This document shows positions 9,948 to 64,000 of a stretch of 64,000 nt of DNA, in pieces. The position numbers and the translations under genes were made by a program. This stretch comes from a virus (lineage: Duplodnaviria > Caudoviricetes), in the IMG/VR virus record IMGVR_UViG_3300011113_000415. One strand, written 5' to 3'. Positions within the stretch are counted from its first letter, which is position 1; each line of letters begins with the position of its first letter. The notes under the pieces are model-generated. The model did not search any database. It was given only the letters and a program-made list of their open reading frames with translations, and was not told the DNA's origin.

Positions 9948-10435
9948 AACCCAGTCAAAAACTTGCGGCACTTGCCGAGCAAGAATTACCCAAATTATTG
10001 AATCATGTGATTGTGGCCGATGGTGACAAATATAGGGTGTTTGGATCATATGTATTACGTCAAACACCACGCGGTTACACAGTGACCTATCAAGATCAGC
10101 CAGTGGGCACATTTACCAGCACCAGAAGTGCCATGGCTTGGTGTGTAGCCGATCGAAATCGTCAGTACAATCTAGCACAAGAAATACAACACCTAGATTT
10201 TGCCCTGCTGAGACTACGCAATGATATAGAAATTCGTGGTCAACAGGCTCAAAAAGCCAGCGGAACATTTTGGGAAACAGTCACAGCCAAAACCCAACAC
10301 AAACAAGCACACAGTCAGCACCTACAAAATGAATTGACAAAATGCGTAAATCGGGCTAAATACCTACAACTTCGAGGAAGCAACAATGAAACTGCAAGAA
10401 CTGGCCGTAACACGCCCCACAAAACAAGTCGCTAA
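9944..10435 (+). CDS. hypothetical phage protein
   Basis: ATGA overlap with previous stop supports start 9944 (MKPSQKL). Confidence 0.65.
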   Translation: MKPSQKLAALAEQELPKLLNHVIVADGDKYRVFGSYVLRQTPRGYTVTYQDQPVGTFTSTRSAMAWCVADRNRQYNLAQEIQHLDFALLRLRNDIEIRGQQAQKASGTFWETVTAKTQHKQAHSQHLQNELTKCVNRAKYLQLRGSNNETARTGRNTPHKTSR

Positions 10436-45464: not shown

Positions 45465-45761
45465 ATGCGTGAATTTGCGCTGGCGTTCCTATTTTGCTTG
45501 ATCAGCACCATAGCCAACGCTCAAATCAACCTAGACAAACCAGTATACTGTGATTCTGCCACAACAATATTGCAGATAATAAAAGACCGATACCGAGAAA
45601 CACCAGTCTGGATAGGCAGTCAAAGCAGTGGTATCATAATGTTGACCTTGAACGAAACCACACAGTCCTGGACCTTGCTGGAACTCTATGATGAATTGGC
45701 CTGCATACTTGGCACAGGAAAAGCATTCAACACTATGCAAAAAACACGCCCTGTTCTGTAA
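45465..45761 (+). CDS. exported hypothetical protein
   Basis: signal peptide; TAAATA and AAGGAG upstream. Confidence 0.6.
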   Translation: MREFALAFLFCLISTIANAQINLDKPVYCDSATTILQIIKDRYRETPVWIGSQSSGIIMLTLNETTQSWTLLELYDELACILGTGKAFNTMQKTRPVL

Positions 45762-45790
45762 CAAAATTGTAACACACTTTGGCCTAAATA
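45756..45790 (+). promoter_or_regulatory. Pho-box-like repeat plus TAAATA upstream of pstS
   Basis: CTGTAAC-AAAA-TTGTAAC (11-bp period), 11 nt, TAAATA. Confidence 0.7.
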
Positions 45791-45812
45791 ATTGTCTAAC
45801 AAGGAGATTCTA

Positions 45813-46814
45813 GTGAAACAATTATTTGCAATCGTATTAGCGGCATTGACATTATCAGCGTCAGCACAGATCACAGGTGCTGGTGCAACATTTCCATACC
45901 CCATCTACTCAAAGTGGGCAGAACTTTATAACCGGGAAACTGGCGTAACACTCAACTATCAATCCATTGGATCCAGTGGCGGCATTCGTCAAATTGATGC
46001 TAAAACAGTCACCTTTGGTGCCAGTGATGCACCTGTTGCCGGAGACAAGTTGGCCGCAAACGGTCAAGTACAATTTCCAGCAATCATTGGTGGTACAGTT
46101 GCTATTGTTAATTTGGATGGTTTCAAACCAGGCGAACTACGTATCACAGGGCCTGTATTAGCAGAAGTATTTTTAGGCGAAATCTCTAAATGGAATGACC
46201 CAAAGTTAACAGCACTTAACCCGGGTAAAAAATTACCTGACTTGGAAATTACTATTGTGCATCGTGCAGACGGGTCTGGAACAACATTCAACTGGACAGA
46301 TTATTTAACAGCAGTAAGTACCAAGTGGGCTGAGAAGGTAGGTAAAGGTGCCGCAGTCAAATGGCCAGCAGCCTCATCAGTGGGTGGCAAAGGCAACGAA
46401 GGCGTGGCCGCCAACGTACAACGTGTTAAAGGCTCAATCGGCTATGTTGAATATGCTTATGTTAAAAAGAACAACTTGACTTTCTTGCAATTGCAAAATA
46501 AGTCAGGCAAGTATGTTAGTCCAGATGACCTAACATTTGCTGCCGCGGCAGCAGGTGCTGATTGGTTCTCAGTCCCTGGTATGGGCGTGAGTATTGTGGA
46601 TCAAAAGGGCGATACTGTATGGCCCATAAGCACAGCCAGTTTCATCATCATGTACCGAGATCCCGCAGACAAAAAAGCCAGCCAGGACGCACTAAAATTC
46701 TTTGACTGGGCATTCAAGAATGGTAAGAAAGCCGCAGAGGAATTGGATTATGTAGCATTACCTGATAGCCTGACCCGACAAATTCGCGAGCGGGTTTGGA
46801 GTCAGATTAAATAA
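45813..46814 (+). CDS. pstS: phosphate ABC transporter substrate-binding protein
   Basis: GAGATFPYP, YQSIGSSGG, FGASDAP, HRADGSGTT, GKGNEGV; AAGGAG RBS and GTG start. Confidence 0.96.
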   Translation: MKQLFAIVLAALTLSASAQITGAGATFPYPIYSKWAELYNRETGVTLNYQSIGSSGGIRQIDAKTVTFGASDAPVAGDKLAANGQVQFPAIIGGTVAIVNLDGFKPGELRITGPVLAEVFLGEISKWNDPKLTALNPGKKLPDLEITIVHRADGSGTTFNWTDYLTAVSTKWAEKVGKGAAVKWPAASSVGGKGNEGVAANVQRVKGSIGYVEYAYVKKNNLTFLQLQNKSGKYVSPDDLTFAAAAAGADWFSVPGMGVSIVDQKGDTVWPISTASFIIMYRDPADKKASQDALKFFDWAFKNGKKAAEELDYVALPDSLTRQIRERVWSQIK

Positions 46815-46817
46815 ACA

Positions 46818-46860
46818 AACCGAGTGCAACGATAGAGTACTGCTGGAACTCGTAACCAGC
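46818..46860 (+). ncRNA. candidate small structured RNA
   Basis: lies between TAAATA (46808) and a terminator; pairings GCTGG/CCAGC, CGAGT/ACTCG, AGTGC/GTACT. Confidence 0.4.
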
Positions 46861-46892
46861 AAATACCCCATTTTTTTTGGGGTATTTTTTTT
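46861..46892 (+). terminator. rho-independent terminator
   Basis: AAATACCCCA-loop-TGGGGTATTT plus T run. Confidence 0.85.
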
Positions 46893-46917
46893 GTACGTAA
46901 CGATTATAAATATCTGT

Positions 46918-47082
46918 ATGAGTTGGTTCAAAAGAATACCGCACAGATATCCACCCACAACTGCCGCACCCACACCCTATAGGTCCAGCCCTGCTACAGA
47001 TCTAGCACTGGAACAAGCCAAAGCGACCCGCCCAAAATCTCGTAAAAAATCAGTCAAAAAACACCCACTAAATAAGGGATGA
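46918..47082 (+). CDS. small basic Pro-rich protein
   Basis: ATG 5 nt after TATAAATA (46905-46912). Confidence 0.5.
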   Translation: MSWFKRIPHRYPPTTAAPTPYRSSPATDLALEQAKATRPKSRKKSVKKHPLNKG

Positions 47083-47723
47083 AACCCACTATAGCACTGT
47101 TCCTACATCATCCTAGGACTTCGGTGCAGAGTGGAAACGCTGTAATGCAAGCCTTGCGTGAGCATTATCATTTCAAAATATTCACACGCCACGAACTCGA
47201 ATCCGAGTTCTTCAATGATGTAGACTGTGTGGCCTTTCCAGGCGGCATAGGCGATTCAGATTCCTATGACTGGTTGTTCAGAGTCAACGGCCCTGTGATA
47301 CGTAACTACATGGCTCGGGGTGGTAGATATCTTGGCATCTGTATGGGTGCTTACTGGGCAGACGCAGACTACTTTGACATACTAGATGGAGTGCGGGCAG
47401 AACAGTATATTCGAAGACCCGGCACAGACACACGTCGTCCACATGCCAAAGCAGCCAGCATAACTTGGCAAGGCAACCCTGAGCGCATGTATTTTTATGA
47501 TGGCTGTGCCTTGGTGGGTGACGAATCTAGATTTGAAACTGTGGCCAGATATGCCAATGGTGATGCCATGGCCATCATACAAAATCGTGTGGGCCTGATT
47601 GGTTGCCATCCTGAAAGTGTTGAGTTTTGGTACGACAAGAGATATTTAAAACAACATTGGCATCATGGTCGCCATCATCAATTGTTACTAAATTTTGTAA
47701 ATCGATTATTTGTAACAAAATAG
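47079..47723 (+). CDS. class I glutamine amidotransferase-like (BPL_N-type) protein
   Basis: FPGG, YLGICMGAY nucleophile elbow, GCHPE. Confidence 0.75.
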   Translation: MKPTIALFLHHPRTSVQSGNAVMQALREHYHFKIFTRHELESEFFNDVDCVAFPGGIGDSDSYDWLFRVNGPVIRNYMARGGRYLGICMGAYWADADYFDILDGVRAEQYIRRPGTDTRRPHAKAASITWQGNPERMYFYDGCALVGDESRFETVARYANGDAMAIIQNRVGLIGCHPESVEFWYDKRYLKQHWHHGRHHQLLLNFVNRLFVTK

Positions 47724-47744
47724 TCACATGATTTTGCCTAAATA
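47710..47744 (+). promoter_or_regulatory. Pho-box-like repeat plus TAAATA upstream of the plcP-like gene
   Basis: TTGTAAC-AAAA-TAGTCAC, 11 nt, TAAATA; same geometry as the pstS site. Confidence 0.62.
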
Positions 47745-47748
47745 CAGC

Positions 47749-48534
47749 ATGCTGAAAACGTATCGCAGTATTTTTATCAGTGACGTACATCTAGGCACAA
47801 GAGATTGCAAGGCAGAAGAACTCAACAACTTTCTAAAACACAACTCATGCGATACCTTGTATCTTGTGGGTGACATTATAGATGCCTGGAAAATTCAACA
47901 AAACAAATGGCGATGGAAACAAACCCACACCAATGTTGTCCGTCGTGTGCTAGGTCATGCCAAGCGCGGTACTCGTGTGGTATTCATAGCAGGCAATCAC
48001 GACGAGTTTTTAAGACCAATGATACCATATGGATTCAGTTTTGGCTTGATAGAAATTGTCAATCAAACTGAACACATAGGTGTAGATGGTCGGCACTATC
48101 TTGTGGTGCATGGTGACCTGTTTGATGGTATCACAAGACTAGCACCGTGGATTTCATTCTTAGGAGATCGAGCATATGACTTTATTCTTGCGCTTAATAG
48201 CCGATTCAATTGGCTACTGCATCGTTTTGGTATTGGGTACTTTAGTCTTAGCCAGTACCTTAAAAAGCGAGTGAAAAAAGCAGTAGACTTTATTTTTCAC
48301 TTTGAAAAAAATCTAGCCAGTTACTGTCGAAAGCGTGGCTACGATGGTGTTATATGTGGACACATACACCACGCAGAAATAAAAGAAATAGATGGCGTGG
48401 TCTACATGAATGACGGAGACTGGGTAGAGTCATGCACTGCCCTGGTAGAACATCACGATGGACGATGGGAGATTGTAACATGGACACGAAGAAATGACAA
48501 AGAAGATATTAATGGTCACGGACAATGTTCCTGA
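47749..48534 (+). CDS. PlcP-like phospholipase C (LpxH-family metallophosphoesterase)
   Basis: IFISDVHLG, LVGDIIDAW, GNHDEFLR, HGDLFD, ICGHIH, NDGDWVESCTALVE; adjacent GT4 gene. Confidence 0.75.
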   Translation: MLKTYRSIFISDVHLGTRDCKAEELNNFLKHNSCDTLYLVGDIIDAWKIQQNKWRWKQTHTNVVRRVLGHAKRGTRVVFIAGNHDEFLRPMIPYGFSFGLIEIVNQTEHIGVDGRHYLVVHGDLFDGITRLAPWISFLGDRAYDFILALNSRFNWLLHRFGIGYFSLSQYLKKRVKKAVDFIFHFEKNLASYCRKRGYDGVICGHIHHAEIKEIDGVVYMNDGDWVESCTALVEHHDGRWEIVTWTRRNDKEDINGHGQCS

Positions 48535-49501
48535 TCAAATAAATGGTGTCAACACAACTTATCAAAATATCGAGAAGTATGCAATTTTGGATGATTATAT
48601 TATCCATACTCTTCATCCCGGGTGCTTCCGCTACATTGATTGTCCTAAATATAACGAAGTCAAACTTGCCATTCCAAGCAAGATGGGACAGAAGATTGAG
48701 GAGATATCTCCGGATTATATACACATCCAAACAGAAGGTCCTCTTGGTCTGTGGGCTAGAAAGTATCTTTCAATATGTGGTTATAGGTACAACACCGCTT
48801 ATCATACTAAGTTTCCTGAAGGGCTAAAGAAACTGTTTGGTATTCCTGAATTGGTGACATGGCCTCTAGTGCGTTGGTTTCACAAACACTCAGGCAAAGT
48901 GTTGACCACAACTGATAGCATGGTAGCGGAATTGCGCTCACATGGATTCCGGGGCGAAATTGTGTCATGGACACGTGGAGTTGATCGTGAGATATTTCGA
49001 CCCGAACTCAGACAAAACTTTCCTGCCAAGTATTTACTGTGCGTAAGTCGTGTGAGCAAGGAAAAAAATCTAGAAGCATTCTTGGACCTGGACTATCCTG
49101 GCTATCAAAAAATCATGGTAGGTGATGGCCCCATGTTGGAAACATATCGCGAACAGTATCCCGATGTCACATTCTCCGGATTCAAAACAGGTACGGAACT
49201 TGCTAGATATTATGCCAATGCTGAAGTATTTGTATTTCCCAGTCAATGGGAAACATTTGGTATTGTCATGATCGAAGCCATGGCCTGCGGAACTCCAGTG
49301 GCTGCTTATCCCGTTCAAGGTCCGGAGGATGTTGTAGATGAAGGCGTGACAGGTTGTTTGAATTCCAATCTCAAGCAGGCAGTTACTGATTGTTTGTTTT
49401 TAAATAGACAACAGGTATGGTCTGGCAGCCAACGTTGGTCATGGCAACGTGCGTGGGAAATATTCAGAGACAACCTAGTTCCAGCAAAGCCACAAAAATA
49501 A
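48494..49501 (+). CDS. Agt-like GT4 glycosyltransferase (putative DAG glycosyltransferase)
   Basis: VTD..PDQINGV, HIQTEGPLG, YHTKFPE, RGVD, RVSKEKNL, ETFGIVMIEAMACGTPV. Confidence 0.75.
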   Translation: MTKKILMVTDNVPDQINGVNTTYQNIEKYAILDDYIIHTLHPGCFRYIDCPKYNEVKLAIPSKMGQKIEEISPDYIHIQTEGPLGLWARKYLSICGYRYNTAYHTKFPEGLKKLFGIPELVTWPLVRWFHKHSGKVLTTTDSMVAELRSHGFRGEIVSWTRGVDREIFRPELRQNFPAKYLLCVSRVSKEKNLEAFLDLDYPGYQKIMVGDGPMLETYREQYPDVTFSGFKTGTELARYYANAEVFVFPSQWETFGIVMIEAMACGTPVAAYPVQGPEDVVDEGVTGCLNSNLKQAVTDCLFLNRQQVWSGSQRWSWQRAWEIFRDNLVPAKPQK

Positions 49502-63886: not shown

Positions 63887-64000
63887 AATGGTTTGCCGAA
63901 ACAACTGACTATCAAGACTCAGTGCCCAACGGTATCTACTTGTTGGATGACGCCAAGAGCCGAATGTATGCATTCACTCCTGGTGGTGCCAAACAAATCA
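63883..64000 (+). CDS. hypothetical phage protein (partial; runs off the window)
   Basis: ATGA overlap; open to the window end (MKWFAETTDY...). Confidence 0.55.
   Translation, partial: MKWFAETTDYQDSVPNGIYLLDDAKSRMYAFTPGGAKQI

Follow-up and report, generated by a model that had tools for sequence, protein, structure and literature searches.

This locus raises the question of which polymerase, answering to whose signal, reads two promoters that look bacterial in their upstream half and viral in their downstream half. The source is a giant T4-like freshwater phage from a jumbo group that is very abundant and uncultured. We found no DNA-level match among cultured phages for the window (the whole 64-kb stretch of DNA analyzed here), and 6% of the words sampled from it were present in one public metatranscriptome only, in its assembled contigs.

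Both bipartite strings of the original prediction were recovered by a direct check of the sequence, and all of their elements lie on the plus strand. At site 1, a Pho box (45756..45773) made of the direct repeats CTGTAAC and TTGTAAC, 7 bp each with AAAA between them, is followed by an 11-nt spacer (45774..45784) and by TAAATA, the late-type core of the pstS promoter (45785..45790). At site 2, the order is the box TTGTAAC-AAAA-TAGTCAC (47710..47727), an 11-nt spacer (47728..47738), and TAAATA as the late-type core of the plcP promoter (47739..47744). The boxes were assigned by pattern match and the cores by direct reading, both with support from relatives. The spacer of site 1 is fixed in length and free in sequence in relatives, and that of site 2 was assigned from the relatives' plcP promoters. 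The 11-bp repeat period (7+4) and the 11-nt gap hold at both sites. GCC before TAAATA, proposed as a further shared feature, is present at both but does not generalize; it was found in only 13/53 unique related promoters, so we dropped a functional role for it, and it appears to reflect the relatedness of sites 1 and 2 instead.

With a strict pattern the two sites stand by themselves. YTGTMAY-N4-TWGTMAC has an expectation of 0.04 in 64 kb and, with both strands scanned, matches only at sites 1 and 2, a count of two that 0/100 shuffles reach, and GCCTAAATA is present in the 64-kb window at the same two sites only. Under a looser half-site score the window contains about 10 boxes, no more than the 12.6 of shuffles; as some 12 are expected by chance in 64 kb, we rejected this score as uninformative when used alone. 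Among those roughly 10 loosely scored boxes, sites 1 and 2 are the only ones with TAAATA at +11. A chance origin of the sites is untenable because they are conserved in relatives, as described below.

The genes downstream of both boxes are of the Pho-regulon type, and site 1 is predicted to serve pstS. This gene (45813..46814, plus strand) encodes a phosphate ABC transporter periplasmic binding protein with a signal peptide (NCBIfam NF008171, PF12849), begins with GTG, and is preceded by the Shine-Dalgarno sequence AAGGAG (45801..45806, read directly and kept in relatives). Its product scores 403 bits against NF008171, for which the cutoff is 339, placing it at the equivalog level, and it is 75-80% identical to Comamonadaceae PstS; by these similarities it is clearly a host-derived phosphate-uptake gene. 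An intrinsic terminator, read from the sequence as a GC stem and then a T run, lies 3' of pstS (46861..46892, plus strand). Two genes on the same strand separate it from site 2. The first is a small ORF of 54 aa (46905..47082) with a directly read late-type promoter in leaderless geometry, TATAAATA-N5-ATG, with the ATG at 46918. The second encodes a GATase-like / BPL_N-like protein of 214 aa (47069..47723) and has TAAATA (47069-47074)-N4-ATG (47079); its TAG stop codon (47721-47723) falls within Pho box 2.

Site 2 is predicted to serve a PlcP-like phosphoesterase and a glycosyltransferase, which are probably co-transcribed. The plcP-like gene (47749..48534, plus strand, PF00149) encodes an LpxH-like metallophosphoesterase and has TAAATA 4 nt before its ATG at 47749, with no Shine-Dalgarno sequence, a leaderless-type geometry that relatives share with gaps of 4-7 nt. 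The site 2 spacer contains another ATG at 47728, which probably does not serve as the start, as judged from its absence upstream of the gene in relatives. The protein reaches 51 bits only against LpxH models (cutoff 134), is 47% identical to a gene product of Pelagibacter phage Mosig and 52-53% identical to Limnohabitans homologues, and has more than 590 relatives in IMG/VR. The start of the GT4 glycosyltransferase gene (48494..49501, plus strand, PF00534/PF13439) overlaps the end of the plcP-like gene, and its product matches lipid glycosyltransferases weakly. As in the PlcP-Agt operons of phosphate-starved marine bacteria, an LpxH-like phosphoesterase that is not LpxH adjoins a glycosyltransferase behind a predicted Pho box, so that the first protein is a candidate phospholipase C for lipid remodeling and the second a candidate Agt-like glycolipid synthase. 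Here, in contrast, the pair is phage-encoded, its function is suggested by family and context, and the GT4 similarity is weak.

Judged from PstS similarity, the only basis for host assignment, the hosts are probably Comamonadaceae and likely Limnohabitans-like, and the candidate hosts encode PhoB (327 bits). The two sites have PhoB-type architecture, with two 7-bp repeats that recur at 11 bp and a 4-bp spacer rich in A/T between them; the boxes are of the proteobacterial TGTNA type and do not fit the cyanobacterial PyTTAAPyPy(T/A) repeats. In bacterial PhoB promoters (E. coli pstS and phoA, Comamonadaceae pstS) such 7-bp TGTCA-type repeats, with their 4-bp A/T-rich spacer, likewise replace the -35 element just upstream of a -10-like element, with pstS downstream. 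The difference is in what follows the box. Comamonadaceae pstS promoters have TAnnnT (TAGAGT, TAAAGT, TACAGT) exactly 10 nt after the box in 67/73 cases and TAAATA in 0/73, whereas the phage uses exactly 11 (or 21) nt and TAAATA, which ends in A; the host-type layout of box, 10 bp, and TAnnnT is thus absent from sites 1 and 2. The phage-type pattern does not rise above background in 401 Burkholderiales genomes (2 matches versus 2 in the reversed control), while the host-type pattern has 29 matches versus 2. The Limnohabitans plcP homologues are uninformative as a second host baseline, since they are operon-internal genes that lack a strong box within 420 nt.

This baseline bears on the possibility that these are ordinary PhoB/sigma70 promoters that were acquired with the host genes, TAAATA being simply their -10 and its likeness to a late core incidental. 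A box with an A/T-rich hexamer about 10 nt further on is the textbook Pho layout, and the genes are clearly host-derived, given the identity of PstS to its Comamonadaceae counterparts. However, the host promoters of the same gene differ in both hexamer and spacing in 67/73 cases and none has TAAATA, the pattern is at background in the 401 genomes of the host order, and the hexamer is the phage's own abundant late core, which is invariant over 53 diverged box-bearing promoters. We therefore consider this explanation unlikely.

That TAAATA is a late-type core without a -35 element, as originally predicted, is borne out by a promoter survey of a relative and by the sigma factor of complete relatives. 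Genome-wide tests were made on G002, a syntenic 349-kb relative, in which TAAATA precedes 82/395 ORFs versus 28 for its reverse complement. This promoter class shows no information upstream and no -35 element. It fronts the portal gene, the tail sheath gene (E 1e-209; missed by Pfam PF04984 and found with PHROGs), and three virion structural protein families; an exact TAAATA was not found directly upstream of the G002 capsid gene. In G002 genes without a Shine-Dalgarno sequence the modal gap from TAAATA to ATG is 5 nt, which fits a +1 on the A of ATG. Both near-complete relatives encode a gp55-family sigma (phrog_234, E ~1e-23; phrog_12791, E 1e-75) in a long form of 306 aa (phrog_12791) with an insertion of ~130 aa, and from these genomes we infer that the window's phage has one as well. 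A search of G002 with phrog_223 (gp45 clamp) gave no match; the control genomes did not validate this search, and, like the miss with PF04984, it does not speak for absence.

The resemblance to T4 late promoters (TATAAATA, -13 to -6, recognized by gp55 together with gp33 and the gp45 clamp) extends to the single -10-like A/T box without a -35, the gp55-family sigma of the relatives, and the presence of the box before virion genes. The core is shortened here to TAAATA, the sigma is the long form, and a predicted host activator site is found in the upstream region that normally carries no information. Conservation does not extend to the TA at -13/-12, which makes the lineage's core a variant of the T4 consensus; loss of this TA has been reported for phage Aeh1. 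T4-type late promoters are described as having no -35 sequence requirement, and this does not apply to the two promoters or their homologues, which have a conserved Pho box at -40 to -23. Both promoters are therefore hybrids.

Scanning relatives in IMG/VR for the bipartite motif, we found the design conserved in dozens of related phages. Strong Pho boxes had TAAATA at 11 or 21-22 nt in 76/78 cases, comprising 55 contexts at exactly 11 nt and 21 contexts at 21-22 nt. Among unique pstS contexts, 35 have the 11-nt gap, and 45 distinct 11-nt spacers occur among the relatives (27 in pstS and 18 in plcP class-11 promoters), with the spacer of pstS class-11 promoters carrying 0.1-0.4 bit next to TAAATA. 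The half-sites are kept in 41-43 of 54-56 unique pstS upstreams, where core positions carry 1.0-2.0 bits each, and 26-35 of 69 unique plcP upstreams have a box. The distance from TAAATA to the start codon varies from 19 to 35 nt with AAGGAG kept. Terminator-like hairpins are located directly upstream of the Pho boxes in relatives. These comparisons support strong selection on the fusion geometry, which is unlike the host design.

Conservation does not by itself say that the repeats bind PhoB, and they might instead be sites for a different regulator, encoded by the phage or by the host, or have a negative effect on the late promoter. Most phage half-sites are TGTAAC where the host has TGTCAC, and a published warning holds that predicted phage Pho boxes are unreliable without EMSA (PMC10976474). 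Nevertheless, the 7+4+7 layout with a TGTnA core is the signature of PhoB, some relatives have TGTCAC, and TGTAAY half-sites occur in host-type promoters of some Burkholderiales genomes. The boxes are also found only before genes of the Pho-regulon type, which applies to 2/2 in the window and in G002 to the two homologous genes and a neighbor of the cassette, and they relocate together with pstS/plcP-type genes between genomic positions. A regulator other than PhoB thus seems very improbable, and it is highly likely that the sites are PhoB-responsive promoters built on a late core.

The hybrid architecture of the original prediction is accordingly upheld, with Pho-box-like repeats before Pho-regulon-type genes fused to a late core, but strict gating on PhoB is doubtful. 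In a relative, roughly 80 other genes have TAAATA in front of them with no box; the late core should therefore fire regardless of PhoB, and it is more likely that the box adds a phosphate-starvation input. In the mechanism that we tentatively favor, PhoB~P acts with the gp55-type holoenzyme at both promoters, although we would give this somewhat less than an even chance. The composite promoter would consist of a host-type PhoB site fused in fixed helical register to the phage TAAATA core, which the phage's gp55-family sigma would read without any -35 element. The T4 late box has its first T at -13, and A-12, A-9, and A-8 are flipped by gp55 (PMC2988020, PMC7892883). In this register TAAATA would occupy -11 to -6 and the pstS transcript would start at about 45796-45799, roughly 6 nt after the last A. 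With the 11-nt gap, the box would then end at -23, the position that it has in host PhoB promoters, where 10 nt are followed by a hexamer at -12 to -7. The gp55-type holoenzyme would bind the core, and PhoB~P, which only hosts starved of phosphate contain, would sit in the place of the -35 and stimulate this polymerase, so that pstS and the plcP-like/GT4 pair would be expressed late at a basal level and more strongly under phosphate starvation.

The established mechanism of PhoB is through region 4 of sigma70, and gp55 lacks region 4. This weakens the case for PhoB acting with gp55, as does the occupation of the beta-flap tip by gp33 in T4. Any contact between PhoB and gp55 would be mediated by DNA and might be indirect. 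On the other hand, activators of the OmpR/PhoB family also touch the beta flap and alpha, besides sigma region 4 (PMC11825685), which counts in its favor. We suggest, a little more tentatively still, that PhoB~P may directly activate a polymerase carrying a region-4-less gp55-type sigma through a contact unused at bacterial promoters. Such a contact might be made with the beta flap, with alpha, or with the insertion of ~130 aa in the long gp55, and through it PhoB~P would take over from the sliding clamp and gp33 as activator at some of the late promoters.

A slightly less probable but still substantial possibility is that the promoters are used twice. PhoB~P with host sigma70 would act early, the TAAATA region serving as a weak -10 that depends on the activator, and the gp55-type holoenzyme would act later and independently of PhoB, so that one compact element would combine an early promoter gated by phosphate with a late promoter that is constitutive. 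Geometry does not decide the matter; we rejected it as proof of gp55 usage when taken alone, since box-N11-TAAATA is equally box-N10-nTAAAT in sigma70 register. Read in the latter way, the sites keep the host spacing and the T at -7 but lose A-11, while TAAATA itself as a sigma70 hexamer lacks the conserved T at -7, so either register is without one key sigma70 position. Relatives have variants with these two promoter types, early and late, in tandem, box-N10-TAATAT/TACTAT (TAnnAT) followed 5 nt on by TAAATA, showing that the ordinary PhoB/sigma70 design with host-type spacing also exists in the lineage for the same gene. TTGACA-N17-TAAATA occurs at one site in the window, at 10334, suggesting that sigma70 may be able to use TAAATA. 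The tandem promoters, that site, and the sigma70-type -10s of cyanophage Pho promoters all weaken the reading in which PhoB works with gp55, and dual use would also rely on the canonical PhoB mechanism and make a phosphate-uptake protein early, which is physiologically sensible. Against it, the sigma70-type promoters of G002 (TTGACA-N16-18) have TATAAT, TACAAT, or TAAAAT, with TAAATA in 0/86, and the gp55 gene has its own sigma70 and TAAATA promoters in tandem, not merged. The absence of TAAATA from the 73 host pstS promoters and the background-level count in the 401 genomes argue in the same direction.

Cyanophage Pho-box promoters, such as that of P-SSM2 pstS as cited in PMC10976474 and those of S-PM2d (Rihtman et al. 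2024), are the nearest precedent, as these are also T4-like phages with host-derived phosphorus-acquisition genes behind host PhoB sites. Their boxes are of the PyTTAAPyPy(T/A) type, and in the two cases inspected the box is followed by a host-like sigma70-type -10 (TATATT, TATAAT) and not by a late core. T4 middle promoters (MotA/AsiA) are similar in that an activator at -30/-35 stands in for -35 recognition; there the activator is phage-encoded and works via a remodeled sigma70, whereas here we propose a host response regulator and a late gp55-type core. We know of no description of a fixed fusion of a Pho box to a late promoter in cyanophages.

Borrowing of host phosphate-starvation signaling is already known in marine cyanophages, although the evidence there rests on weak box predictions. 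What is new here is a host regulator site joined to the phage's own late core, at a base-pair-exact spacing that is unlike the host's and evolutionarily constrained. If PhoB does drive a region-4-less phage sigma, it would be a new mode of activation both for the OmpR/PhoB family of response regulators and for T4-type late transcription. The comparative evidence suggests that the phages infecting freshwater Betaproteobacteria match phosphate uptake, and probably the replacement of membrane phospholipids, to the phosphorus status of the host, which matters for phosphorus cycling in P-limited lakes.

Both composite sites of the original prediction are present in the window as it had described them. 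In site 1, the Pho box CTGTAAC-AAAA-TTGTAAC (45756-45773) is followed by an 11-nt gap and TAAATA (45785-45790), and in site 2 TTGTAAC-AAAA-TAGTCAC (47710-47727) stands at the same distance from TAAATA at 47739-47744. On both strands of the 64-kb window, a degenerate Pho box pattern matches these two sites only (0.04 expected), as does GCCTAAATA. A looser half-site score finds about ten boxes, which is chance level, and only the same two have TAAATA at +11. We consider it highly probable that the sites are PhoB-responsive promoters built upon a phage late core.

Site 1 precedes pstS (equivalog level, 403 bits against a cutoff of 339), whose GTG start, with AAGGAG before it, lies 22 nt after the site; an intrinsic terminator is found downstream of the gene. 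The pstS leaders (window 45791-45800 and the related phage loci L081-L160) have a conserved, half-site-like TTGT..(T)AAC motif immediately after TAAATA, around the predicted start; it may represent an additional half-site for PhoB or an element of the 5' UTR. The stop codon of a GATase-like gene falls within site 2, and 4 nt separate the TAAATA of this site from ATG 47749, the start of an LpxH-like metallophosphoesterase gene; this ATG is conserved among relatives, while ATG 47728 in the spacer is not. The LpxH score of 51 bits, far under the 134-bit cutoff, would be expected of a PlcP-type enzyme. An overlapping GT4 glycosyltransferase gene comes next. A 54-aa ORF that follows the pstS terminator and precedes the GATase-like gene (46905-47082) is opened by TATAAATA-N5-ATG, and the GATase-like gene has a TAAATA-N4-ATG of its own (start 47079).

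We took the plcP and pstS upstream regions from 160 related loci. A strong box is present in 78 unique contexts; TAAATA stands at exactly 11 nt in 55 of them and at 21-22 nt in 21, with none in 2, so the proposed bipartite motif recurs across relatives. The 11-nt promoters have 45 distinct spacers. Their half-sites carry much information, the flanks and the spacer next to TAAATA almost none, and the pstS start codon follows TAAATA at a variable distance of 19 to 35 nt. From this pattern we infer that the box-to-TAAATA distance is under selection and not merely inherited.

The window, which encodes DnaB helicase, ribonucleotide reductase, ATP-dependent ligase, UvdE, radical SAM enzymes and many orphans, had no DNA match when cultured phages were searched. 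PlcP-like proteins 82-93% identical occur on more than 590 IMG/VR contigs and related PstS on 263, with contigs of up to 360 kb. One relative, G002, is 97% complete at 349 kb and shares synteny with the window, at a nucleotide identity of 65-78%. It has a major capsid protein and portal of T4 type, and carries box-N11-TAAATA before both plcP and pstS. These cassettes lie at another genomic position and in reversed order (window 45756-49501, G002 342592-345363), which suggests that the promoters travel with the genes and that the cassettes behave as mobile modules bringing their own promoters. A third box-N11-TAAATA in G002 (box at 224758) precedes a 143-aa ORF (L255:4269-4700, minus strand; G002 224269-224700). 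This ORF has a weak malonyl-CoA decarboxylase C-terminal (GNAT-like) match, its homologues adjoin pstS or plcP in six related loci (L081, L084, L138, L139, L157 and L033), and its window equivalent is expected just past base 64000.

In the window, TAAATA is three-fold enriched in non-coding DNA. Apart from Shine-Dalgarno sequences, no other hexamer is enriched at 4-7 nt before ATGs that open ORFs, where TAAATA occurs 8 times against a mean of 0.5. Of the 395 ORFs of G002, 82 have TAAATA in front, compared with 28 for its reverse complement; the gaps to the start fall into two classes, 4-7 nt without a Shine-Dalgarno sequence and 16-26 nt, and there is no information upstream of the hexamer. 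Portal and tail sheath (E 1e-209) are among the genes behind it, along with three families of virion proteins. Sigma70-type promoters of G002 (TTGACA-N16-18) have TATAAT, TACAAT, TAAAAT or TATACT, and never TAAATA (0/86). Taken together, this distribution, the virion genes and the avoidance by sigma70-type promoters identify TAAATA as a late-type, gp55-class core. It is shorter than the T4 core TATAAATA; phage Aeh1 is reported to lack the first two bases in a similar way (PMC2988020). A late sigma of the gp55 family is encoded in G002 and in a second complete relative.

In the G002 homologue (306 aa, phrog_12791; L247:5007-5924, plus strand; G002 65007-65924), an insertion of ~130 aa separates the sigma-2-like domain from the conserved N-terminal motif, and the gene has a tandem promoter, TTGACA-N16-TAAAAT with TAAATA 3 nt on. 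No exact TAAATA lies directly upstream of the T4-type major capsid gene, where the region G002 86335-86454 has TTTATAAT and TATATAGGAG instead; this gene may have a variant core or be transcribed together with others. The single TTGACA-N17-TAAATA of the window (10334-10362), before an ORF starting at 10386, is a candidate merged early/late promoter. TAAATA-N4-7-ATG without a Shine-Dalgarno sequence occurs at window starts 5352(-), 9255, 21163, 23259, 34432, 39433(-), 47079 and 47749 and at 28 G002 genes (pieces L244-L261), which implies that leaderless or near-leaderless late mRNAs would be widespread, those of the portal gene and RNR small subunit included.

The phage PstS is 75-80% identical to that of Limnohabitans, Acidovorax, Hydrogenophaga, Polaromonas and other Comamonadaceae, and canonical PhoB is present in all three Limnohabitans genomes checked. 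In 67 of 73 Comamonadaceae pstS promoters, TTGTCAC-N4-TTGTCAY is followed after exactly 10 nt by TAGAGT, TAAAGT, TACAGT, TACATT or TAAATT, and none of the 73 has TAAATA within 45 nt. Across 401 genomes of the host order (Burkholderiales), box-N11-TAAATA occurs twice, the same as its reversed-pattern control, and box-N10-TAnAGT 29 times against 2 in the control. The host promoter form and these counts argue that the phage design is no copy of the host's. Limnohabitans plcP homologues (L262-L266, L274-L276) lie within operons, behind another gene and without a nearby Pho box, and in two genomes share a contig with phoB, ~14 kb away.

The T4 late box spans -13 to -6, with A(-13) variants mentioned in a review (PMC2988020), and by cryo-EM A-12, A-9 and A-8 are flipped into gp55 pockets (PMC7892883). 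This register would place TAAATA at -11 to -6 and the end of the Pho box at -23. Host promoters, with a 10-nt gap and a hexamer at -12 to -7, also have the box end at -23, so PhoB would be placed alike relative to the polymerase active site. The modal TAAATA-to-ATG gap of G002 genes lacking a Shine-Dalgarno sequence, 5 nt, agrees in the T4 register with transcription starting at the A of ATG. N11-TAAATA can also be read as nTAAAT, a sigma70 hexamer at host spacing that keeps T-7 and loses A-11, so geometry alone does not name the sigma.

Six related pstS promoters with TAAATA at 21-22 nt have box-N10-TAATAT, TAACAT or TACTAT, exactly the host-type geometry, then TAAATA 5 nt on, and appear to be tandem PhoB/sigma70 and late promoters; plcP promoters of this class are a mixed set. 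In cyanophage pstS operons (S-SM1, SynMITS9220M01), cyanobacterial Pho boxes are followed by the sigma70-type TATATT or TATAAT without a late core, unlike the TAAATA of the window phage. A separated arrangement thus occurs too; most promoters in the lineage of the window phage have the merged N11 form. In another phage group (L009, L020 and L045 for plcP, L091-L113 for pstS), TTGTGAC-AGTT-TTGTT(A/T)(A/C) boxes have TACATA or TAGATA 15 nt downstream, possibly a late core of variant form (TAnATA) that is spaced differently.

The original prediction of a hybrid promoter gating phage transcription on PhoB~P is supported as regards a PhoB-responsive element on a late core, but strict gating is unlikely because TAAATA alone serves as promoter at ~80 other genes. 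A basal late level with a starvation-dependent rise, or an earlier onset, would be more plausible. We lean slightly, and tentatively, to PhoB~P acting on a gp55-type holoenzyme, since TAAATA makes a poor sigma70 element whichever register is used, phage sigma70-type promoters avoid it, hosts never use it, and OmpR/PhoB-family activators contact the beta flap and alpha besides sigma region 4 (PMC11825685). Nearly as likely is dual use, with sigma70 and PhoB early and gp55 late, which would keep the canonical PhoB mechanism and is favored by the tandem variants in relatives and by the occupation of the flap tip by gp33 in T4. We regard it as improbable that the sites are plain host-type promoters, and as very unlikely that the repeats are something other than PhoB sites.

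It is established for cyanophages that host PhoB controls phage genes (PMC10976474; PMC3037559). Our literature search found no paper in which a Pho box is joined to a late-promoter core or PhoB acts with gp55, and none on the phage group of the window. The two sites offer a substantial chance of a mechanistically new mode of activation.
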